Shown piece after piece: positions 3,325-42,836 of a DNA stretch of 64,000 bases. The notes under the pieces are model-generated. The model saw only the letters and a program-made list of their open reading frames with translations. It searched no databases and was not told the origin of the DNA. A program made the translations under genes and the position numbers. Source of the DNA: Squalus acanthias (lineage: Eukaryota); NCBI GenBank assembly GCA_030390025.1, contig CM059432.1, forward strand, positions 72,108,001 through 72,172,000, in the 5' to 3' direction. Each line of letters starts with the position of its first letter. Position 1 is the stretch's first letter.

Positions 3325-4280
3325 ATGGCAGGGCAGGTGGTGTGTCGTAACTGCAGCATGTGGGAGTTTGTGGAGACTAGCGAGATCCTCAGCATCCACA
3401 TCTGCGGTAAGTGTCTGCAGCTTGAGGATTCGGCTCAGAGTTGTTGAGCTGGAGTCCAAGGTGCAGACATTGCGGGGCATCAGGGAGGGGGAGAGTTACC
3501 TGCACACTTTGTTCCAGGAGGCAGTCACACCCCTTAGATTAAGTAGTACTTTAGAGTTCATTAATGGTCAGGGACAGGAGGGTGTGATCGTGAGTCAGGA
3601 AGGTATGGGGACCCAGGATGTAGTGATGGAGAAGCCTCAGCCCTTGATTTTGACCAACAGGTATGAGATACTTGCTTCCTGTGGGGATGAGAACAAGGAC
3701 TGCAGGGTGGATGAGCAAACTGACCATGGCACCATGGTGCAGGACGCCATTCAAGTGAGGGAAGCGAAAAGGAATGTGGTAGTGGTAGGTGATAGTATAG
3801 TCAGAGGGATAGGTACTGTTCTCTGCAGCCGCGACAGGGAGTACCGAAGGCTGTGTTGCCTGCCCGGTACCAGGGTTAAGGATATCTCCTCACGGCTGGA
3901 GAAGAACTTGGAGTGGGAGGGGGAGGATCCAGTTGTCGTGGTCCATGTAGGAACAAACGACATAGGTAGAACTAGGAATGAGGTTCTGCTAAGAGAGTTT
4001 GAGGAGCTAGGGTCGGAATTAAAACGCAGAACCTCACCGGTAATAATCTCTGGATCGTTACCTGAGCCATGCACAAATTGGCATAGGACAAATAGATTAG
4101 AAGGTTAAATGCATGGCTCAAAGAGTGGTGTGGAAGGCAGGGGTTTCAATTCATGGGGCACAGGCACCAGTACTGGGGAAAGAGGGAGTTGTTCCGTGGG
4201 GACAGGCTCCACTTAAACTGAGTTGGGACCAGTTTCCTGGCGAATCGAATAACTAGGGTAGTAGATGGGGCTTTAAACTA
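3325..4280 (+). pseudogene. CR1 ORF1 (C4 zinc finger + SGNH esterase), frameshifted
   Basis: MAGQVVCRNC...ICGKC in one frame; VVVGDSIVRG, CCLPG and VVHVGTNDI (SGNH blocks) in ORF 3317-4108; frameshifts at both ends. Confidence 0.85.
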
Positions 4281-4459
4281 ATGAAGGGGGGGTGGGAGGA
4301 TTCAGGAAAGGGTAAATTCAAAAGCAGTAAGAGAAATGTCAAGGCTGTAGAGCAGAGAAGTGATCAAGATAAGCAGAGTGGGTCAGGAAGGGACAAAAAG
4401 ATTAATAAAGGTAATAGGGCATTCGTGACTAAAGTGACATCAGGGAATAATAGAAAAAA

Positions 4460-7158: not shown

Positions 7159-7432
7159 GGACGAAGATCAGCCATGATCTTATTGAATGGCGGAGCAGTC
7201 TCGAGGGGCTGAATGGCCTACTCCTGCTCCTATTTCTTATGTTCTTATGGATCAGTAACCACTCTAAGGTTAGTTGCTGATTAATTTATACTCGCTCTGT
7301 GTAAGTTTGCGGAAATGTTTGGTGCTTTCCAGAGTTGTTTGAAGTTCGTGAGATGATAGGGAGTGGTGCTGCAAGTGGAGAAGACCTTGGTTCTGACTTC
7401 AAAGGTTCTGGTCAGACCACCTGCTCCCAGTC

Positions 7433-8370
7433 ATGGGTGCTCTAGTTGTCATCCCCCTTGGCTTGCAGCATGACAGGGAGATTGAGCAGAGGCAGCAAAG
7501 AAGAGGACAAGTTGCTCGCAGAGGTAGGAGGAGGAGAGGGAGAAGGACTCTCTGCAGGAGGCCTTGGGTCTTCCAAGAGCAATTTTCTTACCTCAGCCTG
7601 AGCCAGGAACAGTGTGTGAGGCATCTGCACTTTACAAAGGAGGTGCTCACAGAACTCTGCCACCTCTTCCAACCAGACCTGCAGCCTCACACCAGGGCAA
7701 GGATGACTTCACAGTGGCTGTGAAGGTGACTGTGGCCCTGAATTTCCTTGCGTCGGGATCCTTCCAGGCTGGAGCAGGCGACATCTGTAACATCTCCCAG
7801 TTCTCTGCCCACTGCTGCATAAGAGAAGTGACAGATGCTCTTTATGCCAGGAGAGAGGACTTCATTGGTGGAGCGTGCACGCAGGATAGCAGGCTTCCTC
7901 ATGGCACAGGGTGCCATCAACTACACGCATGTGGCTTTGTGGGGGCTGCATTAAAATACTGAGATGTATCACAACCACAAAAGTTACCACTCATTATTGA
8001 ATGTGCAGTTGGTGTGCGACCATGCTCAGCACATCATGATGGTGAATGCCCAGTGACGTAAGAAAACTACTAGGCACTTGGTCTCAGCATTAAACAAAGC
8101 TTTAATCAACTGTTTTTCAACATGGAGGTCTAGTTGTGTCCTTATCTAGTTCCTGTTAAAGAATGTCCTGAGCAAGCTGGGCCCATGCCCGAGTATTTAT
8201 ACTCTCCCTGGACAGCGCCACCAGCAGGCCGCCCATTATTATTTCATAAGTCATTTCCACATGAATGACAAGATTCATGTCACCCAGTATCCTGGCAGCA
8301 GTCATGATGCTATTACTCTGCCGTTCCCTCAGTCTTTGAGCCACCACGACAAACCAGAGGGTGGCTCGGT
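7433..8370 (+). pseudogene. Harbinger (HARBI1-like) DDE transposase remnant
   Basis: CVRHLHFTKEVLTELCHLFQPDL and VAVKVTVALNFLASGSFQ are present. [11 protein letters not shown] is split by a 229-bp insert. The frame is truncated after ~8370. Confidence 0.85.
8054..8282 (-). mobile_element. Solo-LTR-like insertion (229 bp)
   Basis: TG...CA ends with short inverted termini (tgacgtaa / ttcatgtca) and a perfect 5-bp TSD CCCAG (8049-8053, 8283-8287). Minus strand has TATAAATA (8194-8201) upstream of ATTAAA (8101-8106). Confidence 0.7.
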
Positions 8371-8384
8371 GTTGAATTTTTTTT

Positions 8385-8460
8385 TGATAACGCTCCTGTG
8401 AAGCACCTTGGAATGTTTTATTATGTTAAAGGCGCTATATAAATATGTTGTTGTTGTTGT
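8385..8460 (+). mobile_element. L2 LINE 3' tail fragment
   Basis: ctcctgtgaagcaccttgg...aaaggcgctatataaat(gtt)n matches the L2 3' end at 60730-60800. Confidence 0.75.
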
Positions 8461-8465
8461 CTAAC

Positions 8466-9356
8466 CTATCCTCTAAAGTACGTGGGTGTCAGTATCTGAG
8501 CTGGTGGCTGCGAGTGTGATATCAAGTGACGGTGCTGTGTCTTCATCATCAGTGTGCCTTGGTGCTTTTCTATTTCATGTTCCTCCACCAGTGCCTGGCC
8601 AGGTGGCAATTCTTGGCTACTGAAAGGAGAAAGGCACAAGGGTAAGGGTTCTTTCAGCCCTGCCACTGGCCAGGGGCTCAACGACGGCCCTCCCAATATC
8701 ACCAGCACCACCTCCTCCATTGGGGTCAGGTTATGCAGGTGCACCTGTACCGCGCCGGTTAGGTCCTGCTGCCTCCGGTTGTGAGCCACTTTGTCCTGTA
8801 AGAGAAAGGGAAGTGTGTCAGTGAGTCTCATGCAATCTGTTTGGGTGATATGCATGTCATGGTTGAATAGCTGACAGTGTGTGAAAGCTGTGAGATTTGG
8901 GTGTGAGGCTTGCACCAGTGGTAAGTGTGTGAGGGTGAGGTGAAGCTATGAATGTGAGGTATGTGTCGTGTTTGGTAGAGATTGTTGATAGTTGAGTGAT
9001 GGGGGTGTGGTGCATTGAGCAGTATGTGAGGCTAGTGGTGCAGATGGTGGGATATGGCATTTGAAGATTAATTCACTGACCTTGACCACTCGTGTGAGGT
9101 CATTAAATTTCTTTTTGCGCTGCATCCAGGTCCTCAGGGTTATACTGCTGGCATTCACCATGACAGCTATCTGCTCCCAATGCCTTTTGCGCATTTGCCT
9201 GGAGGGCCTCCTGGCCCTCTGCGGAAACAGGACCTCTCCCCTCATGTTCACCTCCTGCATCAAGGCACCCAGTGCTGCATCAGAGAACCTTGGAGCATGC
9301 TCTTCCTCTGTTGTGACATCAGTAGATTTTTTGCTGCTCTGACTCAGCCAGTTCAA
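8466..9356 (-). pseudogene. Harbinger Myb/SANT-like (MSANTD-type) gene remnant, spliced
   Basis: APRFSDAALGALMQEV...VLFP...HWEQIA...RTWMQRKKKFNDL, then a donor AAG|gtcagt (~9080) and an acceptor ttacag|GACAAAGTG (~8797; DKVAHNRRQQDLTG). Confidence 0.8.
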
Positions 9357-12300
9357 TCACCTGCTGCAGGCAAAATGCACCTCCCCTTTAAGAGGTGCAG
9401 ACTCCCATTCAAGAAGTGCAGGTTAGCTTTAATTGGTGCTAGCCTCGCACGAACTTGGGCCCCCTGCTGAGCGTTCAGCCACTCAGCAGTGCGTTCAGTG
9501 CTGGGCTGAACGCCACCAATCAAGTTGATCAGCAGGCAGCACAAAGTAAGCGTGCTGCCTGCATTAATTTGAACGGGCGCGGGTTGATCACATATTGCAA
9601 TCCACATGCCTGTTTTCAGGTGCAAACCAGTTTCTAGCCAAGTGTGTTTAACTCTATCCTGATTGTTTCATTAATTAGTCAGTTTCTCTATGGAGCATTT
9701 GTCTCTGCTGTAAAACCAGCAAGCCTTGGGCTGATGAGGCCCGAGACCCGCCCACAGGCAAATCCCTGTACTATTTGTAAGGGAACTGTGTCTATAAATA
9801 AAGTAGCATGGTGATCCAGCGAGGAATTGCATGGAGTGAGGGGCAGGATCTGTGTCTAAGGTCAGGTGTGAGTGTGAGTGTGTGTGTGTGAGAGAGAGTA
9901 TCAGGAGAGTTCACTCCCAGTCACACAGCAGCAGGACCTGCACTGTTTGAAGATGCAGCGATAGTGACAATGGCACCACAGGTTATTGATTTATTTACAA
10001 TGCATAAAATTATAAATTTACAAATCATGTCGACAGAATGATCAGTTTGGTGCTAAGAAGAAGAGGTGGCGAAGGTTGGTGGCCTGTGTGTTTAGTCATC
10101 AGTCTGATGATGGACAGCAGCAGTTCATTATGCAGCTGTTCCACCAGGTGACCCTCCGGGTGGGTTGCACACATTCTGACTGTTGAAGTAAACATGAAAA
10201 GGCCGCTGCGCGTGATTGCAGCTGCTTCTGCGGGTTCTGGAAGAAGTACTCGCAATCCGTGGTGTATGAGGTGATCCGTTTGCGGATGTCTTGAACCAAC
10301 TGCCATGAAAGGTCTCTTAGGAAGCCCATGTAGCTCCTGGCAGGCTCCTCCTCATACTTCTCAATCAACGAGGAAGCCTCGACAGATCCAATAAGTGGGA
10401 AGACCAACCACAGTGTTGAGCTACAAGACCTGGTGACCTCCTCACTCTTTCCATCCAGGTGCAACAACAAGCGCACCAGGTTGGACTGGCAGAAGGTGGG
10501 TCTGGAACCTCCGATTCCGCACTTCGCCAAGTTCCCCAACATGCTGAATGCTTCAGTCTGCACTTTATTACACTCGGTCTCGAAGAGTGGTTGAATCCTG
10601 GCGAGGATTTTGTCTACAAAGGGTTGGATGGTGTTTGCTCTCAACTGAATTAAATGCTTAGAGAGGCACGACAGCACCTCAAATATTAGCACCTCCTTCT
10701 GGTTCTCCTTGTTCTCCAACAGACTAATTATTGGGCACGTCACCTTCCGAGACCATCTTTCAGTCTTGTGATGTGCTCCAATTGTAACATTGCCCAGGCC
10801 CCTGACACACAGCAACTGGAGAACCGCAGAGCAAATATCTTAGCAATCTGCTCACCAGAGTATCTGTGAGCTGCAGCTCTGAAACCAGTGGAGATTTTAA
10901 CAGCTCTGAAAGAAGGAAGCCACGGTGACTGTCTGACAGTCTTGGACGGTAAGGATCTGAGCTGTCAGCTGTTTCACAACGCCAGTCAGACTGGGGCCAG
11001 CATATTTCACCATTGCTCTGGCCAGCAGGACAACCCCCTTGTCAGACTTGCCGAGATCCATCATCTGGTCCCATCGTCCACCTTCCACCATGTCTTAAGC
11101 ATTGCTTTATTATTTGTCCGAGTTAGCAGGTCCTTTAGTGTCTCCGCACAGTTCACACACACACACACATTACTGCTTTCAGATGTTCGAACCTCACCTG
11201 AGAATTCTCTCTGCTGCGACTGACCATCAGGAACAATACCATTGAACAAACATTAACACAAGACTTGAGGTGAATGAGCAGGGCACTGAATAACTGTGGG
11301 AATAATGTAGTCACCGCCTTTGCCAACTCGGGCTTAGTTATCATCTGGTCTAGCCCATAGATGGCAGCCAGGGATTCAAGGGTCGAATACTGTGTTGCGT
11401 TCTCTCTGACGGGACAGGTTCTGCTGATCCCAAATGGTAACTGTTTGTTCAGTGTGTCCAGCAGCTCTGCCATTGTACACATGGCACATTCTGTGCCCTC
11501 GGACAGGGATCTCAGCACATCACTGACGTACTTGTCCAAAGGGACGTGTAGGTGAGGGGATGAGCACAACTGTTGCAGTGTTGGGTGAGGCCAGTATGGC
11601 GATACGCCATAGCACCGTAAGTTTCACCTCCTCGTAAGGAACTGACTGCAACTGAACCCTCAGCACATCAAGTATCTCTGAGACCTGGTCCCGAAGTTCA
11701 ATGCCACGTCTTTTAATGACCGCTTGCATGAGCACAGCGGCTGCACGGGAACAGCTGGGGTGTTGTTCACACAGTCCTTTGAAAACCATGAAGAGCAAAT
11801 TGCCAAGATGGTCATGGGGCAAACACTTGGAAAAGGCCTCTGTGATCTGACAGCATGTTTGAAAGAGGACTGAAGTGTCAGGGTTTACTAACTGTTCTCT
11901 GACTACTTTCAGTACCTCTAACTGCTCCTTTTGCTGATCCAGATTGGTGCCTTCATACAATAATTGAATGAACAGGATTATGTACAAAGTGTCTTGGGCC
12001 ATCTGTCGAGCTGGAAGCGATGGGTCTGCGCAGCGTGGCATCAGTCGGCCAATCAGTGCCTCCGTGTTATTTCCAGGCACTACATTACCAGCATTGAACT
12101 TCACCAAGTAAAATTTCAGAAGCTCTAAGGTCATGTCCATGGCTCTCTCTCATTCATGAGCTTTTGTTGAAATGAGATCCACTCTTCTCCCTGATTGAAA
12201 ATGGCCTCAAGTCTTTCAGGAGCCACATCCTGAAGTAATATTGGCTTCAGAAGCTCCTGCAGGTTTGGGTATAAAGTCTTTTTTATGTTACCATTTGTGT

Positions 12301-12575
12301 CTTTGTCCTTGTCCAGTTCTGAAGGTACCAAGCTGAAAGTACAGATCAGGCAGCTTTGAATCAATTGGCAGGTGTGAGCTTGGTTTGAATCAGTGTGTAG
12401 CTGCATGAGATGCGAGCAGGCATTCATGCATAACTGTCGAACATGGCTCTGCAGCAGCTCTGGTGGCTCAGCCTCGATACAATCCTATATGTATGTCAGC
12501 AGCTCTCTGTTTCTGATAAAGTTGATGGAAACTCTCTGGCGATTTGAATGTAGGGATCTGGCTATCAGTGTCACG

Positions 12576-15500
12576 GGAGGAAAAATTTGTGTGCGCCATG
12601 AGAATTGCCGGTGTCATCGGCAACTCGAGTTAACGGCCGCTGAAAATGGCCGCAGCGCTACCGTTGAAAAATAAATGCTGGGCTTGGCAATATGGAGTGC
12701 AGCGCTAACTTACCATACAACGCCCTCCTGGTGGCGTTGATGGAGGCCTAGAACCCAAAGTTCCCGTCCACAGTCGGCGTTGCATCTTCTTACAGCCTGT
12801 GGGAGCGAGGCTGTGGAGTTCGCAAGGCATTGTGACCAATTAAAGGGGCTCTGAATTAAAGGGGCAATGCATTCAAAACTAATAAAAATTAAAAGCAAGT
12901 GAAAAAATGCATTTTTCAGCCCTTACAGCCTTTCAAAAAAAACGTAAATATTAAAAATAGTTCCCAATTGTCAGTCTTCAGCTCTTAAAGCTGGATTGTC
13001 TTCCACACCTAAAAAAAAAAATGGCTCAGCAAGCCAGGGAAGGGGCACCCAGGGTCTCGCCCACAGTACTCCAGCTTCGTGCAGGGGCTCAACTCTTTGA
13101 GAGAGGTCCTCTACCCACAGGGGGCAGGAGGCCCTCCAGAAAGGATGTGGGACCAGATAACTGTGGCCGTCACTGCCAGCAGTGTCGCCCCCACCACCTG
13201 GCTCCAGTGCCCAAAGAAGATTCATGACCTCAGGCCAATGGTCAAGGTCAGTCATCTTCAAGAGCCATCTCCTACCAACTGCATCACCAGCCTCACACAC
13301 TGCTCAATGCACGACTCCGCCCCCCTGCCCCGTCAACCACTCACACACTGCTCAATGCACGACTCCGCCCCCCCACCCCATCAACCACTCACACACTGCT
13401 CAATGCAAGACTCCACCCCCGGCCCCATCAACCACTCACACACTGCTCAATGCACGACTCCGCCCCCGGCCCCATCAACCACTCACACACTGCTCAATGC
13501 ACGACTCCGCCCCCACCCCATCAACCACTCACACACTGCTCAATGCACGACTCCGCCCCCCCACCCCATCAACCACTCACACACAGCTCAATGCACGACT
13601 CCGCCCCCCACCTCATCAACCACTCACACACTGCTCAATGCACGACTCCGCCCCCCACCCCATCAACCACTCACACAGCTCAATGCACGACTCCGCCCCC
13701 CACCCCATCAACCACTCACACACTGCTCAATGCAAGACTCCACCCCCGGCCCCATCAACCACTCACACACTGCTCAATGCACGACTCCGCCCCCCCACCC
13801 CATCAACCACTCACACACTGCTCAATGCACGACTCCGCCCCCCACCCCATCAACCACTCACACACTGCTCAATGCAAGACTCCACCCCCGGCCCCATCAA
13901 CCACTCACACACAGCTCAATGCACGACTCCGCCCCCCACCTCATCAACCACTCACACACTGCTCAATGCACGACTCTGCCCCCCACCCCATCAACCACTC
14001 ACACACTGCTCAATGCACAACTCCACCCCCGGACCCATCAACCACTCACACACTGCTCAATGCACAACTCCACCCCCGGACCCATCAACCACTCACACAC
14101 TGCTTAATGCATGACTCCGCCACCCCCACCCCGTCAACCACTCACACTGCTCAATTCATGACTCCGCCCCCGCACTGTCAACCACTCACAGACTGCTCAA
14201 TGCATGACTCCGCCCCCGCCCCGTCAACCACTCACACACTGCTCAATGCATGACTCCGCCCCCCCGCCCCGTCAACCACTCACACACTGCTTAATGCATG
14301 ACTCCGCCCCCACCCCGTCAACCACTCACACACTGCTCAATGCACGACATGGCCCCCGCCCTGTCAACCACTCACACACTGCTTAATGCATGACTCCGCC
14401 CCCACCCCGTCAACCACTCACACTGCTCAATGCATGACTCCGCCCCCGCCCCGTCAACCACTCACACACTGCTCAATGCACGACTCCGCCCCCCCGCCCC
14501 GTCAACCACTCACACACTGCTCAATGCATGACTCCGCCCCGCACTGTCAACCACTCACAGACTGCTCAATGCATGACTCCGTCCCCCGCCCCGTCAACCA
14601 CTCACACACTGCTTAATGCATGACTCCGCCCCCACCCCGTCAACCACTCACACTGCTCAATGCATGACTCCGCCCCCCCGCCCCGTCAACCACTCACACA
14701 CTGCTCAATTCATGACTCCGCCCCCGCCCCGTCAACCACTCACACTGCTCAATGCATGACTCCGCCCCCCGCCCCGTCAACCACTCACGCACTGCTCAAT
14801 GCACGACTCCGCCCCGCCCTGTCAACCACTCACACACTGCTTAATGCATGACTCCGCCCCCACCCCGTCAACCACTCACACTGCTCAATGCATGACTCCA
14901 CCCCCCCGCCCCGTCAACCACTCACACACTGCTCAATTCATGACTCCGCCCCCGCCGTCAACCACTCACACTGCTCAATGCACGACACCACCCCCACCCC
15001 GTCAACCACTCACACACTGCTCAATTCATGACTCCGCCCCCGCCCTGTCAACCACTCACACACTGCTTAATGCATGACTCCGCCCCCGCCCTGTCAACCA
15101 CTCACACACTGCTTAATGCATGACGCCGCCCCCGCCCCGTCAACCACTCACACACTGCTCAATGCATGACTCTGCCCCCGACCCGTCAACCACTCACACA
15201 CTGCTCAATGCAAGACACCACCCCCACCCCCCCACAATCACTCACCTACCAACAATCTGTACCAATCTCGAGGCACATCTCCCATTCCTAGCCTCACCTC
15301 ACCCCCTTGGAGGAGACGGTGCAGGTCATTCTTGGCAGGGGCATGGCTGAGCACTTCGCCAGCGGCAGGGCAGAAAGGATACAAGATACAGGTATCCTCA
15401 TATGTTATCCTCCTTCTGGCAAGCAGCTCTTGCTTTTCCGCCCTCCCCTCACCACAACTCCACCCTTGTGCCTTCCTCCTTTCACACACCCAAGGAATCC

Positions 15501-16749
15501 AGGCTGCCCAGCCAGTGGTTGCCCAAAAAGAGGGAGAGGAGAGTAAAGAAAAAGATGAAGGAGAAGAAGAAGGAGAAGAAGATTGATTTGACAATCCCAG
15601 CCACCAGCTCCTCAAGGTCGACCAGCAAGGCCATTTGCAGTGTACCCCACTGGAAGTCAGCAACCTACCACTAGCCATGCTGCAGCCACTGGGATAGCAC
15701 TGCATGACACCAGTAGGATAGGCAAAGGCACACACAGAAGACAGTCACTAACAGAATGCATGAGGATGATGAGTTGATTTCTTGATGTCATATTGGATGA
15801 ATAGAGGTATAAAGTTGGATTGGAAAGTTTGCTTTGAGGTGGCTTTTATTTCAGCATCGTGGCCAAGAGGACACTGTGATGGTCAGTAACAGAGTGAAGG
15901 TCAGGTGTGGGAGAAATGTTGAAAGGGGAATTGGGGTTGTGTTCACTGGTACCACAGGCAGATGATTCCATCCAGGATATCCCGGCCAGAAAGGGGCTGT
16001 CTGGGTTGCATCCTTCCTTCTGCTTCCTCCTCTTCTGCTTCCTCCTCTTCTGTTTCCTCCTCTTTTGCATCTTCCTCTCCTGTGTCTTCCTCTTCTGTGA
16101 CTTCCTCTTCCCTCAGCGTGTGAATGCTGTAAATCTGAAATGACTGCATAAAATGTTGGAAATACTCAGCTGGTCAGGCAGCATCTTGACCTGAGAAGTG
16201 AACTCTGTTTCTCCCTCCATGGATGTTGCCTGACCTGCTGAGTAATTGCAGCATTTTCTGTCTTCTTAAAGGCCTTCCTTTACCATCCAAGGCCTTGCAA
16301 GCATCCAGCAGCACTCCCTACACACTTAAAAAACTTTTAACATGTATTGCAGCAACCCACAACTTCAATAAAATTAAAAATACCCAGTCCAAAAGCTTAA
16401 ATGCAAACTTATGTGAAAGATGTGTGTGTCCCTTTAAGAGGTGCTGACAGTGCCTCTGTGAGTCTGCTTGCTCACTAGATTTACCTGGCGTGCTTAGGAC
16501 CCAGCACTGAACTTAGCGCTAAGGTCAAAGTTCAGGGTGGTGACGTTAAGTCGGCATTGCACGACAACTGGCATCACCACTCTACCATTTTTCTTTCAGG
16601 CCGCTACTTTGGAATGGCAGCGTTACCGGGAGGTTGAAAATGATGGACGCCGCAGGACCCACCGCCAGCTGGCGGAAGAGTGGCCGCTGCCACTTTCTTC
16701 ACTTAACGCCGCGCTAACGACTGGTGCCAAGGTAGGGAATTTTTGCCCC
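12576..16749 (+). mobile_element. Internally deleted Harbinger derivative ('Myb-only' family, copy 1) inserted in the MROH1-like pseudogene
   Basis: Ends ggaggaaaaattt / aatttttgcccc; TSD ACG/ATG. Myb-like exon at 13021-13250 (WDQITVAVTASSVAPTTWLQCPKKIHDL). Acidic transposase C-tail on the minus strand at 15943-16110. Confidence 0.85.
13292..15225. repeat. Minisatellite, ~44-bp unit, roughly 44 copies
   Basis: Unit approximately cactcacacactgctcaatgca(c/t)gactccgccccc(ca/cg)ccc(a/g)tcaac; produces the spurious H/P/T-rich ORFs. Confidence 0.97.
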
Positions 16750-18265
16750 ATGTTTTTATTAGGCTGAGCTTTAATGTGAGATCTCTGGATTGAATCTTTT
16801 TCCCCTGCCCACTTGTAATGAATTGATTAACCACAACTGGCAGAATGTGGGTCTCAATTATGGACAGCATTAGTTCCTCAGGTGTGTAGAATGCCATGTT
16901 CCCATAACACAGAACCAGTGTGCTCTTGGCTTTATCCAAATCCACATCAGGCTTGACCCGAAGAATATTCAAGAAACTTTTAGTTTTCTTAAATCTGTTG
17001 GAGTTAGCAAACTCCTCCAGGCTACTGAGGGTATCATCAAAGTGTGTAATAGCACAGAAACCAATGGCGAGAGCTGCTCCCTCTCTCTCCGCACTCTCAC
17101 TGTGCTGCACACTCAGTAGCATTTGGTGAAGCTCCTCCTTTATATTCTTAGTGCAGGTCTGATGGAAAACTGTCGCAAGAGATTTATAGAGAAAGCCCTT
17201 CTCTTGTGGGGAAAGATGGTTGGTGTCGATCTGTTTCCATATTTCATCAGCGAGCTGACATGTCCATTCCTCGCCATCAATGGTATTCAGAGTTCTGGAC
17301 AAGACCAGCAATAATTTCTCCTCCCATTCCCATTAGGCCAGAGACTCCTCTGAATTCTGCAGTAATTCGTCAACCAATGATGGCAGCTCCTCTTCCCACC
17401 CATCACTGTTGCTGGGTGGATACTGAGGTTTAGGACATTAGCCTCAGTGCCGCAGCTCCTTGGCTTCCTCCTTGATATGGGCAACAAGACACAACGAGGA
17501 GCTGGGTCAGCAGTGCCTGGGCTTTAGGGAGATTGGCATCTTCATTGTAAGTGAGGAAAAACTTTCACTGCCGGCTTGCAGTTTCTTTTTCCCAAGATGT
17601 ACTCAACAATTACAGATTGTTGTTAAAGCCTTGGTGTACTGGGTCAGTGACAAACTCCAGTAAGAATGGCCAAAGACATCCTCCATCTTCACTGCAGTTG
17701 TGATCATACACATCACTGTTTCAAATACTGTGACTATGTCTTCATCTGTTACCTGGTCTGGCTGATGATTGGGTGGTACCAGGGTCCCTGAATCAACGGA
17801 TGCAGCACACTGTTGGATGATGAATTCCACCATCGCCTTTCCTCCCTCTGGCTCAAGGTAACCTTGTTGGGCCATGACACATATTACTTGGGCAATTAGC
17901 TTCTTCTCCTGTTTACAGCTGTTGTCCAGGAGCACTGGTTTTATGGCGGCCACAATCTGAGCCTTCTTCGTCAAAGTGCGAAGAGACCGATATAATGAGG
18001 TGTTCCTACTCTCATTTGTTGGTCAGCATTCTCTAACTGGGATAGAAGGAATTTGACCAATGAGTCTGCGTAAACTGGGGCCAGAACTCTGAAACAGCAA
18101 AGGATCTGATTGTGTTTCTTCACAGAAAGATGGTTATTAGACCCCACCAAAACACACATCTGCTGGTGGAAACTTTTAAGCAGATTGTCCATCTGTGACA
18201 ACATCCAGTACCCGGCATAGACACTCTGATGGAAAAATGCCCTGGTTGTTTCTTGTAGAGAAAGA

Positions 18266-18724
18266 AAAACTTCATTTATATAATGCCTTTCACGACCACC
18301 AAATGTCCCAAAGCGCTTTACAGCCAATTAAGTACTTTTGAAGTGTAGTCACTGTTGCAATGTAGGAAATGCAGCTGCCAATTTGCGCACAGCAAGCTCC
18401 CACAAATAGCAATGTGATAATGACCAGATAATCTGTTTTTGTTATGTTGATTGAGGGGTAAATATTGGCCAGGACACCAGGAATAACTCCCCTGCTCTTC
18501 TTCGAAATAGTGCCATGGGATCTTTATACGTCCACCTGAGAGGGCAGACGGGGCCTCAATTTAACGTCTCATCTGAAAGACAGCACCTCCAACAGTGCAG
18601 CACTCCCTCAGCACTGCATTGGAGTGTCAGCCTAGATTTTTGTGCTCAAGTCTTTGGAGTGGGACTTGAGCCCACAACCTTCTGACTCAGAGGCGAGGGT
18701 GCTACCCACTGATCCACGGCTGAC
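18266..18724 (-). mobile_element. tRNA-derived Deu-domain SINE (SacSINE1-like)
   Basis: tRNA-like head gtcagccgtggatcagtgggtagc...ggctcaagtccc, Deu-type core and L2-like tail. Removing it restores GILS-FYKK in the MROH frame. Confidence 0.85.
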
Positions 18725-20639
18725 AGAAAGACAGGATGCCTGGAACTAACCTGGGCAGCTCTTCCTCCAGTGTGTCCTTGGGCAGCAGGGAGATGATATA
18801 GCCTAGAGCTTCCACTATTGGGATCTTCAATTCAGAGGACTCCTTCTCAAGCCTCACCTTGAACAACAGACTATAGACAGTGTTGATCCCAGTGGAGAAA
18901 GACTCTTTAGTCACTGTAGGGTCTGAAGCTTTCTCCACATTTCCCAGATAGATCAGGATGCTCTTGCTAAAACTTCCCATTGCTGAGGCAAATGCAGACC
19001 TCAGTTCAACCTGTTTAACACCAATGAGAACTGGAATCATGGTCCTTAAGATAGATTTTAGTAAAGGCACCAATGCCATATACATTTTCCATTGACATTT
19101 TTGTTAAGGTCTTCACATGCAGAAGGTGCCGTTGTTTGAAATTCTTTGTTGTCAACTGGACAACTTCATTTCTGAACCTGAAGCTCATGGCAACCAGAAG
19201 ATTGCTGGCAGCTTCCTGGCTGTCAGCTTGTGCTCTTGTTAGCAACGTCATCCACAGTGCAGCCAAAGAGATAACTTTCTCAGCTAGTACTGGGCTAATT
19301 TGATCAAGGGTGTCCTTGATAATCATCGCCATGCTCTCCAATACTTCAACCTCCTGTGGAACTATTCGTATGGTGTGGTGGCACAGATAGTCACGGCAGC
19401 TCATTCACACTATTTCTGGGTGCTGATGCCCCAGTGTGTGGAGGGTCTTTGATATTTTCTTCTGACAACTTTCATCTTCCTCAGCAATCATCTTCACGAG
19501 GGCAACTGAGAATGATTCCACGTTGAAGTACATTTTAGTAGTCTTTCCAGAGCCCACTAGTAATTTAGAATTGCTCACTTCAGTATGTCATTGTTACTGC
19601 CCTCTCACTAAGCTGTCTGATACACTCTCAGCAGCTCCGTCCTGTTTACTCTAAATTCTACTACTCTTCAATCTGAAGAAATGTTTTCACCCAATAATTT
19701 CTGTGAGTAATGATCAATTAAAGACTGTCTTTGTTCACTCACTCACAGTCTGAAATCAGATCTCTGCTTGGATAATTCTTTCCTCTCTGACTTCTTTCTC
19801 TCCAGTAATTAATGTTCCTTCTATTTAGATAGATTTGATGAATGCACTTGTTTTTAAGCTCTCCCTTTGTTGCTCTCTCATGCACAAATGCACAGTTTGT
19901 ACCACTTTGCTGTATTTTGTCCTCCCCTGCGGTTTCTGTGTTTCCATGGTTTTCATTGTGAGGCCAGGTTGCATAACCCCTCAGTTGTGATGTTGACCTG
20001 AGTCATGTGCCCATATAATTCCTGCCAGCTGTTTGTGGCAGTTTCAGGTGGGTGGTGGGGGTTACGGCCCAGACCTGAGATACAGACCATACTGACAAGG
20101 CAACATTCGCAACCCTTGGCAGCCATATTGGATCGAGCAGCTGTTTGTTCCTAATAAAGAACCCACCACACCACACACTCTCAAAGCACACATGACAAAT
20201 GATGTAGAAATGAGAGTGTAGGACAGACATTTCTAGCAAAATTACCCGCAAACTGGGATGTTCATGTGACTCAAATCAATTTTAAATACACCAGAAATAA
20301 AAGATCTGAGCTCACAAGATCATTCCGGGGTTAGAATGGGAAAGCATAATTTCCAGCCCAGGTAATAAGGCTCCTTCACTCCAGTAGGGTAGTTTCAAAT
20401 TATAGGGAACGGGTCAGATACTATTTGCATTTGACTAGAAAGGATGATTTTATAATTCCTGAGTAAACACGGTTGTGGGTTTGTACGTTCATCACCATCT
20501 AAACAAATGATTCCACTTCTTTCATTTGTGCGTTGACAGGAAGTAAACTCCAAAGGGATTGAAGCTGCTTCATGATGTCACGAGAAAGTTGTTGTGACAT
20601 CAGAGCAGTCCATTGTGACATCAGAGCACTTGTTCTACT

Positions 20640-21005
20640 CTTTTCTCCTTTAAAATCCTTGTTCCCTACTGCCTACCACCCCAGGTTTCTCACCCACATA
20701 TCCTCACTACTTTCCTTCTTCAGCCTCTGTACTCACTGACTCCATATCCTCGATCATTTCAATCTCCATCTCAACTCCCCCTGACCTCTCTCCTCTGATT
20801 TTACTGCCCTCCTGTCGTATCTTAAACTCCCCTACCCATATTCATGGCCAACCCCTCAACTTTGCCATCTCCCCTGGCCTCACTACTTCCATGGTCTCAA
20901 TCACTGACAAGGCCACCGCTGGTCAATTCCTTTTATCACCTGCAACCCTGTTCCTCTTTCCAAACCCACATCCTACTGCATCCACCCCTGCAAAACAACT
21001 CTCTC
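20640..21005 (+). mobile_element. Decayed L2 LINE fragment (continues at ~25330-25780)
   Basis: C/T-rich L2-type ORF2 sequence. The 25700-25780 part resembles the L2 at 58920-59010. Confidence 0.55.
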
Positions 21006-23799
21006 TCATAGCAACAGGAGGAGACCATTCAACCCCTTGGGTTTGCTCTGCCATTCACTTAGATCATGGGTGATCTGCACCTCAACTCAATTTACCTGCC
21101 TTTGCTTCATATTCCTTGATACCCTTACCTATTAAGATTCTATCTATCTCAGTCTTGAAAGCTCCAATTGTCCTAGAATCCACAGCCCTTTGGGGGAGAG
21201 AGTTATGGATTTCCACTACCCTTTGTGTGAAAAAGTGTTTCCTGATTTTACCCCTGAATGTCCATGCTCTAATTTTAAGATTATGGGAGAAAAATTTGTG
21301 TACGCCAAGAGAATTGCCGGTGTCACCGGCAACTCGGGTTAATGGCCGCTGAAAATGGCTGCAGCACTACCGGGAAAATATTTGTGCTGGGGGCTGGCGA
21401 TGTGTAGCACAGTGCTAACTTATCCTGCAACGCCCTCCTGGTGGCATTAATGAAGGCCTCCGACTCAAAGTTCCCATCCACAGTCGGCTTTGCAGCTTCT
21501 TACAGCCTCTGGGAGCGAGGCTGTGGAGTTCGCAAGGCATTGTGGGCAATTAAAGGGGCTATGAATTAATCGGCAATGCATTCAAAACTAATCAAAATTA
21601 CAATGCAGTGAAAAAATGCAGCTTTCAGCCCTTACTGCCTTTCAATAAAAAAATTACCATTAAAAAGAAATCCCAATTGGGATTCTCCAGCACTTAAAGT
21701 TGAATTCCCTTCCGAACCTCAAAAAATGGGAAAAGTGCTTCAGCACTAACACGAATAGCTCAGCAAGCCAAGGAAGGGACACCCAGGGTCTCGCACGCAG
21801 TCCTCCAGCTTTGTGCAAGGGGTCAACACTGTAAGCTAGGTCCTCTACCCACAGGGGCCAGGAGGCCCTCCAGAAAGAACGATGTGGGACCACATCACCG
21901 AGTCTGTCATGGCCAGCAGTGTTGCCCCCACCACCTGGCTCCAGTGCCCAAAGAAGCTTCATGACCTCAGACCACTAGTCAAGGTCAGTGAATACATCTT
22001 TAAAAGCCGTCTCCTACCAACTGCATCACTAGCCTCACACACTGCTCAGTGCATGATTCCTCCCCCCCCCAATCACTCATGTACCAACAATCTGTACCAA
22101 TCACAAGGCACACGTCCCATTCATAGCCTCACCTCACCTCACCCCCTTGGAGGAGATGGTGCAGGCCATTCTTGGCAGGGGCATGGCTGAGCCCTTGGCC
22201 AGCAGCGAGGCTGCAAGTATATACGATGTTGGTATCCTCACACGTTCTCCTCCTCCTGGCATGCACCTCTTGATTTCCCGGCTTCCCCTCACCATAACTC
22301 CACCCTTGTGCCTTCATCATTTCACACACCCAAGAAATGCAGCCTGCCCAGCCAGTGGTTGACCAAGAAGAGGGAGAGGAGAGAGAAGAAGAAGATTGAT
22401 TTGACACTCGCAGCCAACAGCTCCTCATGGTCAACCAGTAAGGCCCACTGTGTCCCCCACTGAAAGTTAGCAGCCTTCCACCAGCCATGCTGCAGCCACT
22501 GGGGTAGCACTGCGTGACATCAGTAGGATAGGCAAAGGCTCACTAAGGGAATGCACAAGGGTGATGAGTTGATTTCTTGATGCCATATTGCATGGATAGA
22601 TGTATAAAGTTGGATTGGAAAGTTTGCTTTGTGGTGGCTTTTATTTCAGAATTGTGGCCAAGAGGACAGCTGTGATGGTCAGTAACAGAGTGAAGGTAAG
22701 GTGTGGGACTAATGCTAAAAGAGGAATTAGGGTTGTGGTCACTGGGACCGCAGGCAGATGATTCCATCCCGGATTTCCCAGCCAGAAAGGGACTATCTGG
22801 GATGCATCCTTCCTTCTGCTTCCTCCTCTTCAGCTTCCTCCTCTTTTTTTTCTTCCTCTTCTGTGTCTTCCTCTTCCCTCTTTAAGCGGATGCTGGAAAT
22901 CTGAAATGAAAGCATAAAATGCTGAAAATACTCAGCTGGTCAGGCAGCATCTCGACTTGAGATGTGAACTCTGTTTCTCTCTCCATAAATGTTGCCTGTT
23001 GACTATTTGCAGCTTTTCTGTCTTCTCAGAGGCCTTCCTTTACCATCCAAGGCTTTGCAAGCATCCAGCAGCACTCCCTACACACTTAAAAAAACTTTTA
23101 ACATCTATTGCAGCAACCCACTACTTCAATGAAATAAAAAAAAACAGTCCAAACATTTAAATTCAAACTTACCTGAAAGATGTATAAATAAGGTTGGTGA
23201 GCTGCAGGCGCAAATAGATACATGGAAATATGATGTTGTGGCGATAATGGAGACCTGGCTCAAAAAAAGGACAGTATTGGGTTTTAAATATTCCTGGATA
23301 TAAGGTGTTCAGGAAAGATAGGGAAGGAAGGAAAGAAAGGAGGTGGAATGGCAGTATTGGTTGAGGAGAATGTTACAGTGCTGGAGAGAGAGGATGTTCT
23401 GGAGGGGTCAAGGACAGAATCTATTTGGTTGGAGTTAAGAAATAATAGAGGTGCCATTACACTACTAGGTGTATTCTATATGCCACCAACTAGTGGGAAA
23501 AATATAGAGGAGCAAATTTGCAAGGAAATTACAGAGAGGTGCAAGAACTATAGAGTAGTAATAATGGGGGACTTCAATTATCCTAATATAGACTGGGATA
23601 ATAATAGTGTAAAGGGCAGAGATGGGGAAGAATTTCTGAAGTGTGTTCAGGATAACTTTGTTGATCAGTACGTTTCCGGCCCAATGAGGAAGGGTGCATG
23701 AACAGAGAGACCTGGGGGTATATGTGCACAAATTGTTGAAGGTGGCAGGGCAGGTTGAGAAAGCGGTTGAAAAAGCATTCGGGATACTGGGCTTCATAA

Positions 23800-24285
23800 G
23801 TTCCGCACTCATGAAGACGGTCTCAATCGGGATCTTGGGTTTATGTCACGATACATGACGTGATCCGGACTCGAGTCGTCGTTAGCTTGTTCACAGATGT
23901 GATTCCCAGTAAAAAAGTAAAAATTTTCCCAGTAAAAAAGTAAAAATTTTAAAGCTTTTCGTTTTACATACAGACGGCAGCTTTTGACACGTTAGAACCC
24001 CTGCGACTACACCTCATTGTCTCAGTTGTATCTTGCTATGTCTTTGATGTGGTACCTTCCTGGCTGGCTTAATTAACTTTATCACACCTCGGCAGATAGT
24101 CAGGATGATTTAATTTAGTGGTCTGCAATTGTAAGGTACACATGCTTTGTTTTCTATCTATATATGCTTTGGCGATTCTGTATCTAATTTACTTCACCTG
24201 AGGAAGGAGCAATCGATAGCTCCGAAAGCTTGTGATTTCAAATAAAACTGTTGGACTATAACCTGGTGTTGTGCGACCTCTCAAT
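23800..24285 (+). mobile_element. Penelope-like element 3' end / pseudo-LTR copy
   Basis: Nearly identical to 42440-42928; flanked by a duplicated TTCATAA (23793-23799, 24286-24292). Confidence 0.93.
24194..24235 (+). ncRNA. Minimal type I hammerhead ribozyme motif (copy 2)
   Basis: tcac-CTGAGGA-a-GGAGC-aatcgata-GCTCC-GAAA-gctt-gtga. Confidence 0.75.
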
Positions 24286-26039
24286 TTCATAAATAGAGGC
24301 ATAGAGTACAAAAGCAAGGAAGTTATAATGAACCTTTATAAAACACTGGTTTGGCCTGAACTGGAGTATTGTGTCCAATTCTGGGCACCGCACTTTAGGA
24401 AGGATGTGAAGGCCTTAGAGAGGGTGCAGAGAAGATTTACAAGAATGATTCCAGGGATGAGAGGCTTCAGTTACGTGGGTAGACTAGAGAAGCTGGGCTT
24501 GTTCTCCATAGAGCAGAGAAGGCTGAGAGGAGATTTGATCGAGGTATTCAAAATCATGAGAGGTCTAGACAGAGTAGATAGAGAGAAACTGTTCCCATTG
24601 GCGGAAGGGTCGAGAACCAGAGGACACAGATTCAAGGTGATTGGCAGAAGAACCAAAGGCGACATGAGGAAAAACTTTTTTACGCAGTGATCTGGAATGC
24701 ACTGCCTGAAAGGGTGGTGGAGGCAAACTCAATCACGGATTTCAAAAGGGAATTGGATAAGTACCTGAGGGGAAAAAATGTGCAGGGCTATAGGGAAAGG
24801 GCGGGGGGAGTGGGACTAGCTAAAGTGCTCTTGCAGAGAGCTGGCACGAACTTGATGGGCTGAATGGCCTCCTTCTGCGCTGTAACCATTCTATGATTCT
24901 ATGATTCCCTTTAAGAGGTGCTGACAGCACCTCTGTCATTCTGTTTGTATGCTGGGTTACCCTGGCGTGGTTATGACCCAGCACTGAACTCAGTGCTAGG
25001 GTCGAAGTTGGCCATGGTGATGTTAAGTCGGCGTGACGTCACCACTCCGGCATTTTTCTGTTGCAGGGCACTACTACTTATCGGCAGCACTACAGGGTCA
25101 TCGTGAGACCTGCCACCAGCTGGCGAAAGAGTGGCATCAGCTGCTCTTTCGCCATTGTTTGCCTGTAACGGGTGGCATTAAGCCCCCGAATTTTTAGCCC
25201 CATGTCCCCTTGTTTTTCAATCCACCACCAGAGGAAATAGTTTTTCCTTATCTACTCTATCAAATTCTTTAAACATTTTAAGCAGCTAAATCACATCAGC
25301 CCTCAATCTCTTATATTCAATTCACTTACAAGGACACTTTCAAACTTCTCACTGCCAACCTTTGACCTTCCATTTGCCACGATACTTCTGCAGTTGTCAA
25401 TCGCTCAACCAATGCGTTGATGCCTTGTCTCTAGTAAAATCTTACTCTCTTCCACCCTGGTTATTTTCCCTGGTACCGCCCAAATCCTCAACCCCCGAAA
25501 TCCAAGGGACACAGACTTAAGCATTGCTGATGCACAACTGGTTTAGCCATTCATCATGAGATCTGGCTGGACCACATCAAGCACGATTGGGTCCTGCTCT
25601 CCTCTGCCAAAATGCTCATCCTGGAATGCAAAATTAGTTCCCGGTGTTTCTTCTCCACTACCAACTATCTTCTTAAACCCCTGCCCCCTGCCCCCTCCAC
25701 CCTCTCCACCAACAAGGGCGAGAAGCTCATGGACTTCTTCATCTTTAAGAATGAGACCATCTGTTCAGCTGCCTCTGCCATTGATTTTAAATAAGTTTAA
25801 AAATGAGTTTAAAGCTTAATTTTAAGAGCCTCCTCGAAGGCTCGCAAATGGGCGCAGTTAGCGGAAACTCGCCGTGGTGATTAATTCGATCTGGGTTACT
25901 TTACTTTACAAATTGCAGAAACCCACTTTGTGCTGAACGTAATTTGCGCTTGAAATTTCTCAATCTTTTGCACTAGTTTAACCGATTTGGGGCGAATTGC
26001 GCTGAAAAAAACCAGCACAACCTAACGGAAACTCCAAGC

Positions 26040-26970
26040 AGGGAGTACAATGTCGAAGTTTGCGGATACAAAACTTGGCAAAGCAGTAAATTGTGAGCAG
26101 GATAGTGGCAGACATCGGGAGGACCTAGACAGATTGGTGAAATGGACAGACGTATGGCAGATGCAATTTAATGTGGATAAGTGTAAAGTGATGCACTTTG
26201 GGAGAAACAACATGGAGAGGCAGTATAATCTAAATGGTGCTATTTTGAGTGAGAGTGCAAGAGCAGCGGGACCTGGGGGTGCATATTCACAAAACTTTGA
26301 AGGTGTCAGGACAAGTTGATAAGGCAGTTAAGAAAGCGTATGGGATACTTGGATTTGTAAATGGGGGCATTGAATACAAAAACAAGGAAGTCATGCTCAA
26401 CCTTTACCAATCACTGGTTAGGCCTCAGCTGGAGTATTGTATCCAATTCTGGGCACCACACTTTCAGAAGGATGTCAAGGCCTTGGAGAGGGTACAGAGG
26501 AGGTTTACCAGGATGATACCAGGGATGAGTGACTTCAGTTATGTGGAGAGGCTGGAGAACGCGGGATTGTTCTCCTTAGAGCAGAGAAGGTTAAGGTGAC
26601 ACCTAATAGAGGTATTCAAAATTTGAGGGGTTTTGATGGAGCAAGTAGGAAGAAATTGTTTCCTCTGGCAAGTGGGTCGGTAACCAGAGGTCATAGATTT
26701 AAAATAATTGGCAAAAGAACTAGAGAGCAAATTAAGAGACATTTTTTCACACAGAAGGTTGATATGATTTGGAACGCACTACCTGAAAGGGCAGTGGAAT
26801 TAGATTCTATAGGAGCTTTCAAAAGGCAATTGGACATGTATTTGAAAAGAACTAATTTGCAGGGTTATGGGGAAAAAGCTGGAGTTTGGGACTAAATTGG
26901 GCAGGTCCTTCAAAGAGCCGGCACAGGCACGATGGGCAGAATGGCCCCCTTCTGTGCTGTAAGATTCTAT
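26040..26970 (+). mobile_element. 5'-truncated CR1 LINE
   Basis: SKFADTKLG, WQMQFNVDKCKVMHFG, RPQLEYCIQFWAP and a CR1 3' UTR. Confidence 0.9.
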
Positions 26971-29223
26971 GGGCTAAAGATTCGGGGGCTTTACACCACC
27001 CGTTACCGTCAAAAAACAATGAAAAGAGGGTGGCCGCCGCTCTTTCATCAGCTGGTGGTGTGTCCCGCAGCGTCCTCCATTTTCCCAGGTCCGGCAGCGC
27101 TGCCGGTAAGATCCATCGCCCTACAAAGTAAAATGAGGGAGCGGTGACGTCAGATGTCAGAGTTCAGCACTGGGTCCTAAGCTCGCCAGGTAAACCTAGC
27201 ATGCAAGCAGACTCACAGAAGTGCCGTCAGCACCTCTTAAAGGGGCTCACACATCTTTCAGGTAAGTTTACATTTAAGCTTTTGGACTGGATTTTTTTGA
27301 TTTTACTGAAGTAGTAGCTTGCTGCAATAGATATTAAAAGTTTTTTTTAATGTGTAGGGAGTGCTGCTGGATGCTTGCAAGGCCTCGGATGGTAAAGGAA
27401 GGCCTCTGAGAAGACAGAAAAAGCTGCAAATACTCAGCAGGTCAAGCAACATCCATGGAGAGAGAAACAGAGTTCACATCTCAGGTCAAGATGCTGCTGA
27501 CCTGCTGAGTATTTCCAGCATTTTATGCTGTCATTTCAGATTCACAGCATCCGCTCACAGAGGGAAGAGGAAAACGCAGAACAGGAAGAAACAGAAGAGG
27601 AAGAAGCCGAAGAGGAGGAAACAGAAGAGGAGGAAGCAGAGCAGGAGGAAGCAGAAGGAAGGATGGAACCCAGACAGCTCCTTTCTGGCTGGGATATCCG
27701 GGATGGAATCATCTGCCTGCGGTCCCAGTGACCACAACCCCAATTACCCTTCCAGCATTAGTCCCACACCTTAACTTTCCTCTGTTACTGACCATCAAAG
27801 TGTCCTCTTGGCCACAATGCTGAAATAAAAGCCACCACAAAGCAAACTTTCCAATCCAACTTTATACATCTATCCTTCCAATATGACATCAGGAAATCAA
27901 TTCATCTCCCTTATGCATTCTCTTAGTGACTGTCTTGTGTGTGCCTTTGCCTATCCTACTGATGCCACACAGTGTTACCCCAGTGGCTGCAGCATGGCTG
28001 GTGGAAGGCTGCTGACTTTTAGTGGGGGGGCACTGCAAATGGCCTTGCTGGTTGACCTTGAGCAGCTGGTGGCTGGGAGTGTCAAATTGAGTGACGGTGT
28101 TTCTTCTTCTTCACTCTCCTCTCCCTCTTCTTGGTCAACCACTGGCTGGGCAGGTTACATTTCTTGGGTGTGTGAAATAAGGAAGGCACAAGGGTTGAGT
28201 TGTCATAAGGGGAGGGCGAGAAAGCAAGAGCTCCATGCCAGAAGGAGGATAACGTATGAGGATACCAGCATCTTGTATCCTTTCTGCCCTGCCACTGGCC
28301 AAGGGCTCAGCCATGCCCTGTCAAGAATGGCCTGCACCGTCTCCTCCAAGGGAGTGAGGTGAGGCTAGGAATGAGAGGTGTGCCTAATGATTGGTACAGA
28401 TTGTTGGTAGGTGAGTGATTGGGTGGCGGCGGGGGGGGGGGGGGGGGGGGACAGGGGAGTCATGCATTGAGCAGTGTGTGAGGCTAGTGATGCAGTTGGT
28501 AGGAGACGGCTTGTGAAGATGCGTTCACTGTCCTTGACCAGTGGTCTGAGGTCATGAAACTTCTTTGGGCACTGGAGCCAGGTGGTAGGGGTGACACTGC
28601 TGGCAGTGACAGCCTCGGTGATCTGGTCACACATCCTTCTTTCTGGAGGGCCTCCTGGCCCCTGTGGGTAGAGGACCTCTCTTGCAGTGTTGACCCCCTG
28701 CACAAAGCTGGAGTGCTGCATGCGAGACCCTGGGTGCCCTTTCTCTGGCTTGCTGAGTCATTTGTGTTAGTGCTGAAGCACTTTTCCCATTTTTTGAGGT
28801 TTGGAAGGGAATTCAGCTTTAAGTGCCGCAGACTCCCATTTGGGATTTCTTTTTAATGTTAATTTTTAACGGGAGTATGGGCTGAAAACTGCATTTTTTC
28901 ACTTTATTTTAATTTTTATTAGTTCTGAACACATTGCCCTTTTAATTCATTGCCCTTTTAATTACCCACAATTCCTTGCGAACTACATAACCTCGCTTCC
29001 AGAGCCTGTTAGAAGCTGGAACGCTGCTCCTGGACGGGAACTTCCACTTCCATGCCTCCACTCACATCACCAGGAGGGCGTTACACAGTAAGTTAGCGCT
29101 GGCCTAAAAATCTTTAGCCCCCAGCGCCAATTTTTCCCTGGTAGTGCTTCGTCCATTTTCAGCGGCCTGTTAACCCAAGTTGCCGTTAACCCAACTCTCG
29201 TGGCGGCCACAAATTTTTCCCCC
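26971..29223 (-). mobile_element. 'Myb-only' Harbinger derivative, copy 3 (inverted, uninterrupted ~2.25 kb)
   Basis: Reverse-complement colinear with copies 1 and 2; ends gggctaaagatt / aaatttttccccc; TSD unclear. Confidence 0.85.
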
Positions 29224-35404: not shown

Positions 35405-35873
35405 AAAAGAAAGACTTGCATTTATATAGCACCTTTCACGACCACCGGATGTCTCAAAAGTGCTTTACAGCCAATGAAGTACTTTTTGAAGTGTAGTCAC
35501 TGTTGTAATGTGGGAAACGCGGCAGCCAATTTGCGCACAGCAAGTTCCCACAAACAGCAATGTGATAATGACCAGATAATCTGTTTTTGTTATGTTGATT
35601 GAGGGATAAATATTGGCCAGGACACTGGGGATAACTTCCCTGCTCTTCTTCAAAATAGTGCCATGGGATTTTTTACGTCCACCTGAGAGAGCAGGCAGGG
35701 CCTTGGTTTAATGTCTCATCCGAAAGACGGCACCTCCGACTGTGCAGTGCTCCCTCAGTACTGCACTGGAGTGTCAACCTAGATTTTCGTGCTAAAGTCT
35801 CTGGAGTGAGACTTGGAACCCACAACCTTCTGACTCAGAGGTGAGGGTGATACCAACTGAGCCGCAGCTGACA
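35405..35873 (-). mobile_element. SacSINE1-like Deu SINE
   Basis: Colinear with 18266-18724. Confidence 0.88.
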
Positions 35874-40171: not shown

Positions 40172-40358
40172 TAAAAGCAATTTTATTTTCTTGCAACACA
40201 CAATACAGTATAATCTAACACATATGAAAGCAAGAAAAATTTGTGTTTAAAGAGAGGAACGCATTTCTGGTATGCTGGTATTACATACTAAGATTTTCCA
40301 GTAGCAACACAAATGATAATAACTATGGGTAGGGCTCAAGTTCTGCCCAACCACCAAA

Positions 40359-42503: not shown

Positions 42504-42836
42504 TCCGGACTCGAGTCGTCGTTAGCTTGTTCACAGATGTGATTCCCAGTAAAAAAGTAAAAATTTTCCCAGTAAAAAAGTAAATTTTTTTTAAAGCTTT
42601 TCGTTTTACATACAGACGGCAGCTTTTGACACGTTAGAACCCCTGCGACTACACCTCATTGTCTCAGTTGTATCTTGCTATGTCTTTTGATGTGGTACCT
42701 TCCTGGCTGACTTAATTAACTTTATCACACCTCGGCAGATAGTCAGGATGATTTAATTTATTGGTCTGCAATTGTAAAGTACACATGCTTTGTTTTCCAT
42801 CTATATATGCTCTGGCGATTCTGTATCCAATTTACT

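Follow-up and report, generated by a model that had tools for sequence, protein, structure and literature searches.

A decayed single-exon MROH1-like gene of Squalus acanthias and its probably retrogene-founded family in cartilaginous fishes

MROH1 and HPO-27 are described as factors of lysosomal membrane fission linked to WASH-actin (PMC13587356, PMC5450189, PMC12934144). Here we describe the relic of an MROH1-like gene in a 64,000-nucleotide stretch of the Squalus acanthias genome (GCA_030390025.1, contig CM059432.1, positions 72,108,001 to 72,172,000; the window). Very probably, the relic is one of the dispersed copies of a single-exon family. This family was likely founded by one MROH1 retrocopy in an ancestor of cartilaginous fishes, and its members later multiplied as DNA. 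They match MROH1 (HEATR7A), HPO-27 of C. elegans and Mroh1 of Dictyostelium in length and in the identity and order of their four maestro Pfam domains. Unlike MROH1, the shark family is single-exon, multi-copy and 34-45% identical to it, and its function is predicted by descent.

Multigene families founded by a retrogene derive from one intronless founder, with later DNA duplication, birth and death, and the shark family shows this pattern. It differs from other retrogene families in its 4.9-kb coding sequence, in the retention of the spliced parent and in having ray/shark orthologue groups that evolve at about the parent's rate. A second comparison concerns the Pack-TIR elements (TIR, terminal inverted repeat), for which a survey reports four multicopy cases in reference genomes, with an example of 291 bp, and the word 'shark' does not occur in its available text (PMC8277862). 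As far as that text goes, one of the shark subfamilies, G, resembles these elements: host sequence has travelled from one chromosome to another enclosed by the ends of TIR elements, and the target duplications are distinct. The G cargo, however, is a 4-kb frame within 17-22 kb between two separate Harbingers, and no such block was found around the relic.

MROH genes have also expanded in birds. In the tree sparrow, dozens of copies arose by segmental duplication and many are pseudogenes; six of eight expanded families show testis-biased expression, with the families that include MROH mostly testis-biased or silent, and the available text does not describe these expansions as intronless or as MROH1 retrocopies (10.1101/2023.02.19.529176). 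The shark clade, unlike the bird expansions, is restricted to chondrichthyans in the present trees and is far older. Another relative, MROH2B, is also known as SPIF. SPIF binds sperm PKA (protein kinase A; PMC6930163). Spermatocytes induce MROH2B, and the naked mole-rat has lost it (10.1101/2024.11.26.625329).

The relic and its intact relatives

The relic coding sequence lies on the minus strand, runs from an ATG at 19533 to a TGA at 10101-10099, and is colinear with intact paralogues of 1627-1629 amino acids. No intron-sized gap separates it from them, apart from a short interspersed element (SINE, 18266-18724) and a Harbinger-type element (12576-16752), both missing from the intact paralogues. 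This bears out the initial annotation, which had proposed a full-length, intronless MROH1-like coding sequence from this ATG, interrupted by these two elements. The TGA is homologous to the stop of the paralogues, which places the annotated 3' end (10025) 74 nt too far; an AATAAA follows at 9995-9990. After removal of both insertions, 4799 nt (~1600 codons) remain instead of the ~4.87 kb (~1620 codons) first estimated, 91 nt below the intact length of 4890. The closest intact paralogue, L033 (C11:69.05 Mb, 1629 amino acids), is 89% identical in DNA and ~80-81% in protein. Compared with L033 (1574 of 1630 codons aligned), the relic contains 20 frameshifting indels and five in-frame stops, which contradicts the earlier description of its lesions as sparse and the suggestion that the gene died recently. 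A Pfam search recovered the four maestro/MROH2B domains in the expected order across the relic, with matches for seven of nine pieces; PF23221, PF23210, PF21047 and PF23227 follow one another over ~1640 amino acids in the relic pieces as in intact L033, L043 and L073. The relic yields no full protein and by itself is an ordinary pseudogene.

Identity to spliced MROH1 of the whale/zebra-shark type (P0028) is 42% for the relic and 44.5% for intact L033. Because the intact gene is likewise so distant, the divergence from MROH1 built up while the sequence was coding, in line with the suggestion that it exceeds what the lesions could explain. The relic thus does not approach >90% identity to the spliced mRNA, and intact intronless paralogues are present.

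We located a spliced MROH1 gene in the same genome at C4:177.210-177.225 Mb, reached through one match (82% over 74 amino acids). Its last eight exons encode amino acids 1314-1644 of P0028 at 61-91% identity; the donors are GT and the acceptors, where shown, AG. The C4 gene is the MROH1 orthologue proper, whereas the relic falls in the sister clade and has no multi-exon structure. Intronless members and a spliced parent, known from its last eight exons, therefore coexist in one genome, as expected of a retrogene family.

The family was surveyed with three probes, taking the best ~150 matches each from 375, 402 and 238 candidates; the counts that follow refer to the matches listed. Matches occur on 26 of the contigs C1-C28 and on many unplaced contigs, with arrays at C9:25.6-25.8 Mb, C1:91-99 Mb, C6:67-68 Mb and C11:61-69 Mb and on C24, C28 and C3806. 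Two probes gave at least 29 distinct loci with an open frame of at least 1600 codons (14 and 15 more), 12 of them on chromosome-scale contigs. All 26 that we retrieved are single ATG-to-stop open reading frames of 1607-1657 amino acids, which answers the annotation's proposal to count intact single-exon paralogues. Most other matches are broken by stops or have short frames. The C-terminus is changed relative to MROH1 in subfamilies A, B, C, D and G. Near-identical H genes on several chromosomes (L073, L074, L079, L101-L105) are embedded in long tandem-repeat tracts, and at L118 (C19:49.89 Mb) an MROH-like fragment runs into a low-complexity frame of >1800 codons made of tandem repeats.

Trees were calculated with FastTree from 68 proteins and with an IQ-TREE mixture model from 25 proteins; MROH2/7 were left out, except for two marsupial rows in one set. 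The single-exon genes form one clade (SH-aLRT, the Shimodaira-Hasegawa-like approximate likelihood ratio test, 100), sister to shark/ray MROH1 (P0028, P0030), and FastTree gives the same result. Both groups lie outside bony-vertebrate MROH1, and no bony-fish or tetrapod protein falls inside the derived clade among the rows included. The subfamilies are A, B, C, D, E, F, G, H, I and J and a further broken type (L112). Subfamily A comprises the relic, L031-33 and one sawshark protein, and G is a 5'-deleted offshoot of A. Subfamilies B, C, E, F, I and J each contain shark and ray proteins, at shark-ray distances near MROH1's own (FastTree branch lengths). Two Callorhinchus milii proteins, P0313 (1569 amino acids) and the fragment P0266, nest inside the clade in FastTree; they came from a profile search of 1.84 billion representatives plus two look-ups, in which 20 of 143 new matches were named. 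A catshark member, P0021, encodes 1650 amino acids on a contig of 5,608 bp, which leaves no room for normal introns. The single clade, the intact paralogues and the selection described below support the annotation's proposal of a retro-derived, single-exon MROH lineage that functioned in chondrichthyans, and the clade's sister position is the outcome of the tree with spliced MROH1 that it had called for.

Selection and possible function

We estimated the ratio of non-synonymous to synonymous substitution rates (dN/dS) by simple counting. It is 0.37-0.50 in 11 of 14 intact pairs, the other three being near-identical pairs (0.57, 0.71 and undefined), and in a larger set it is 0.37-0.40 for A, 0.15-0.53 for D and 0.31-0.57 for H. 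Neutral simulations with a transition bias bracketing that of the flanks gave mean values of 0.69-0.83. The dN/dS check suggested earlier thus finds intact pairs mostly at 0.3-0.57, under the neutral range, and the intact frames of the family appear to be under purifying selection, judged from sequence.

On the relic branch dN/dS is 0.62-0.65, and its five stops compare with ~10 expected had it been dead throughout (9-10 in the simulations at the relic's branch length). These two values suggest that the relic has been dead for about half of its separate history. The synonymous distance dS between A and B is 0.36, and the split between sharks and rays dates to 250-300 million years ago; spreading this dS over at least that time would, as a rough estimate, put the relic's death at ~40 million years ago or earlier.

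An alternative view takes the family mainly as passive repeat cargo: its copy number would reflect duplication driven by transposons and repeats, and importance for the host would be confined to a few old single-copy members. The G copies fit it well: they are numerous, dispersed, flanked by Harbinger and L2 sequence and near neutral (dN/dS 0.45-1.11), and most matches listed carry stops or short frames. Recently expanded full-length groups, however, are constrained (D 0.15-0.53, A 0.37-0.40, H 0.31-0.57), which makes this view unlikely for the family as a whole. It is probably true for G and is partly compatible with the family reading that we prefer.

For the intact relatives we predict HEAT solenoids that act on endolysosomal membranes, by analogy with MROH1/HPO-27. 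A sequence search of the PDB returned 0 matches, and the ESM Atlas returned MROH clusters only. Use in the germline or testis may be the reason for the multiplication, a tentative guess from bird and mammal MROH genes to which we give a little under an even chance. A role in immunity, in which intact copies serve the phagolysosome or face pathogens and multiply under pathogen pressure, seems unlikely, and use in immune cells or phagocytes is an equally unlikely reason for the multiplication; other tissues or drift make up the remainder. Birth-and-death clusters speak for immunity, as does a segment of H (amino acids 301-450; L073, L075, L078) with 21 amino-acid-changing differences against one silent difference between cluster types. 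Yet no pair-wide dN/dS exceeds 1 in the full-length groups, and in other animals MROH paralogues have links to testis and sperm. Moreover, the H segment is one of 40 windows and one copy, L078, is a mosaic of both H cluster types, so that conversion could explain it. No RNA match was listed for an intact paralogue; four runs guessed to be RNA gave short contigs at a depth of ~2-20 on A and H genes, and these cover non-coding flank too, making DNA carry-over possible.

Spread of the copies as DNA

The relic shares its flanks with its paralogues. On the 5' side 1.7 kb are common to them, of which the ATG-proximal 0.7-0.9 kb also aligns to subfamilies B and C, and beyond a later Harbinger the upstream homology reaches 25780, and 26973 with the copy on C3297. 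Old L2, CR1 and MITE (miniature inverted-repeat transposable element) pieces sit at the same junctions in relic and paralogues. On the 3' side, homology runs about 240 bp past the AATAAA, and poly(A) is absent there. Because of the shared flanks, the old repeat fragments at common junctions and the missing poly(A), the relic is best read from its sequence as a duplicate made at the DNA level from a gene that already lacked introns, and the earlier view that it is itself a retro-derived copy has to be amended. Subfamilies A, B and C share a conserved GTGAGT upstream of the start (19750 in the window); together with an AG immediately ahead of the start codon (19550), it may delimit a short intron in the 5' untranslated region.

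A second-round retrocopy, for which a long interspersed element (LINE) would have copied an intact single-exon paralogue by way of a long transcript, is improbable. The relic is solitary on C8, with no near neighbour among the matches listed, and LINEs are plentiful in the window. Against this route, homology, with the later insertions taken out, continues through old L2/CR1 pieces for at least 2.3 kb 5' of the ATG, it reaches 240 bp past the AATAAA with no poly(A), and related copies show internal deletions instead of 5' truncation. That the relic is a dead-on-arrival processed pseudogene taken straight from spliced MROH1 mRNA is scarcely credible: it lacks introns, a spliced parent exists and its lesions are many, but it is 42% identical in protein to spliced shark MROH1 against 81% to intact single-exon genes, it lies deep inside the derived clade, its flanks are common to paralogues, it has no poly(A), and its closest relative is not a spliced mRNA.

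Duplication together with flanking DNA, the reading that we prefer, is also seen elsewhere in the family. H copies on C4, C16, C2339 and C3806 have 8-10 kb in common at 95-99% identity. In the C9 array (L099-L100, C9:25.61-25.63 Mb), dead G units lie head-to-tail with the L2 tail running into the next unit, which fits unequal crossover. We also considered a circular intermediate for the relic, since the same CR1+MITE piece precedes the gene here but follows it in the C11 copies; a simpler account is that a window-like locus was duplicated in tandem. No unit bounded by TIRs or long terminal repeats was found around the relic, and the window plus 10 kb contains no paired outer Harbinger ends with target duplication; the Harbingers near the relic look like separate later insertions.

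The G copies lack codons 1-287, and the deletion creates a new ATG at the junction (e.g. L041:2509-6555); four retrieved copies keep an open frame of 1325-1326 amino acids. The junction has no GT-AG ends, which rules out a splice origin of the 5' loss. Ten of ten dispersed loci sampled among the weaker matches are of G type, 88-95% alike. G units are flanked by L2 pieces in the same direction; an L2-tailed RNA route is disfavoured, all ten dispersed copies, chosen by a mid-gene probe, having kept the 5' flank. We read 12 G loci over 30-40 kb each. A Harbinger terminal repeat marks the start of the shared block in four of them (C2, C4, C7 twice) and its end in five (C2, C7 twice, C8, C10), and the outer flanks are unrelated, save one common repeat at 73-80%. 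At all three loci with both ends, matching 3-bp target duplications enclose the block (ATA on C2, TTG on C7, TTT on C8; Table 1), although the C8 case is weaker, with a left element of another type and a left flank shared with a C5 copy. The bounded blocks span 17-22 kb, and the flanking elements encode DDE_Tnp_4 and Myb/SANT domains. One G branch was thus apparently carried inside paired transposons, in a composite form. In the remaining G loci one or both Harbinger ends are missing or the boundaries are of other kinds; this route therefore accounts for part of G only.

Table 1. Coordinates of the relic, its flanks and insertions (window positions) and of G-type copies in bounded blocks
Feature	Position	Strand	Remarks
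3' flank common to paralogues	9737..10098	-	AATAAA 9995-9990, CA-rich tract, ~240 more shared bases, no poly(A)
Relic codons ~794-1629	10099..12575	-	ends at TGA 10101-10099; PF21047 and PF23227 matches
Harbinger-type DNA transposon relic	12576..16752	.	short terminal inverted repeats; degenerate 3-bp duplication; absent from paralogues
Relic codons ~271-793	16753..18265	-	PF23210 matches
tRNA-headed SINE in relic coding sequence	18266..18724	-	7-bp duplication TCTTTCT; absent from intact paralogues
Relic codons 1 to ~270	18725..19533	-	ATG 19533; stop at codon 43; frameshift near codon 157; PF23221
5' flank common to paralogues	19534..21285	-	presumed promoter/5' untranslated region; old pieces of L2 and CR1
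Later Harbinger insertion with nested repeats	21284..25200	.	splits shared 5' flank; 3-bp duplication CAT
Duplicated block continued upstream	25202..26973	-	L2 fragment, MITE, CR1 fragment; copies on C2595, C22, C26, C3297, C2
G-type copy in Harbinger-bounded block	C2:105,600,513-105,618,376		L123, L124, L147
G-type copy in Harbinger-bounded block	C7:89,113,559-89,130,698		L151, L050, L152
G-type copy in Harbinger-bounded block	C8:113,337,633-113,359,945		

The SINE has two further copies in the window (35406-35873 and 50357-50819, 89% identity). The Harbinger inside the relic consists for about 2 kb (~13290-15290) of a 46-48 bp minisatellite and contains a Myb-like frame (13013-13300, plus strand) similar to a PF13873-positive neighbour. 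Further Harbinger-type elements surround the relic at 2710-9640, 27000-29223 and 44368-46500, with a PF13873 Myb frame at 8949-9356. A young 490-bp repeat (23798-24287 and 42438-42930) is 98% identical between its two copies and to other loci. An open frame of 726 codons on the plus strand (40323-42500) is, by its appearance, probably a retroelement reverse transcriptase gene, and LINEs are abundant throughout.

Course of events and its meaning

In the history that we favour, the first step would have been the reverse transcription and insertion of an MROH1 mRNA in a common ancestor of chimaeras, sharks and rays; chimaeras split from sharks roughly 400 million years ago. Tree and dN/dS show that the retrogene remained coding and diversified into about ten subfamilies, six of them with shark and ray members. 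Copies are duplicated together with their flanks, in tandem arrays and between chromosomes, and some G blocks are bounded by the outer ends of two Harbingers. The relic would have been under constraint for part of its branch and have lost its function tens of millions of years ago, after which it would have gathered its 20 frameshifts, five stops, SINE and Harbinger.

Several points weigh against this history. Upstream MROH1 exons were not found in the 86 kb upstream on C4, which contain three gaps, and an N-terminal probe gave no high-identity MROH1 exon among the best 150 matches listed. Outside the Squalus acanthias genome the intron state is known for P0021 alone. Of the 29 open frames, 17 come from unplaced contigs, and haplotype duplicates may account for some of these. 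The dN/dS values come from simple counting, not from a codon model; the youngest B pairs stand at 0.57 and 0.71, on few changes, and the relic's own value lies at the lower margin of the neutral range, which leaves the stop count as the main support for its partial constraint.

Our searches of the literature on MROH/maestro genes, chondrichthyans and retrogenes, with supplements partly covered, found no published account of this family, and there was no match in 12 of 24 supplementary files of PMC8455134 or in three of PMC7677710. Retrogenes, MROH expansions and Pack-TIRs are known kinds, and the family's proteins are already in public databases, named MROH1. That uniform label hides about ten paralogue groups and makes shark orthology calls wrong. 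We regard it as possible, though short of an even chance, that the whole amounts to a ~400-million-year-old retrogene family of lysosome-fission-type proteins, still expanding under selection, likely for the germline, with 17-22 kb blocks moved by Harbinger composites. The family would then be unusually old and large among those founded by a retrogene, would be a clear example from a vertebrate of how composite DNA transposons can relocate a host reading frame of kilobase scale, and would offer natural variants of a recently described membrane-fission factor.

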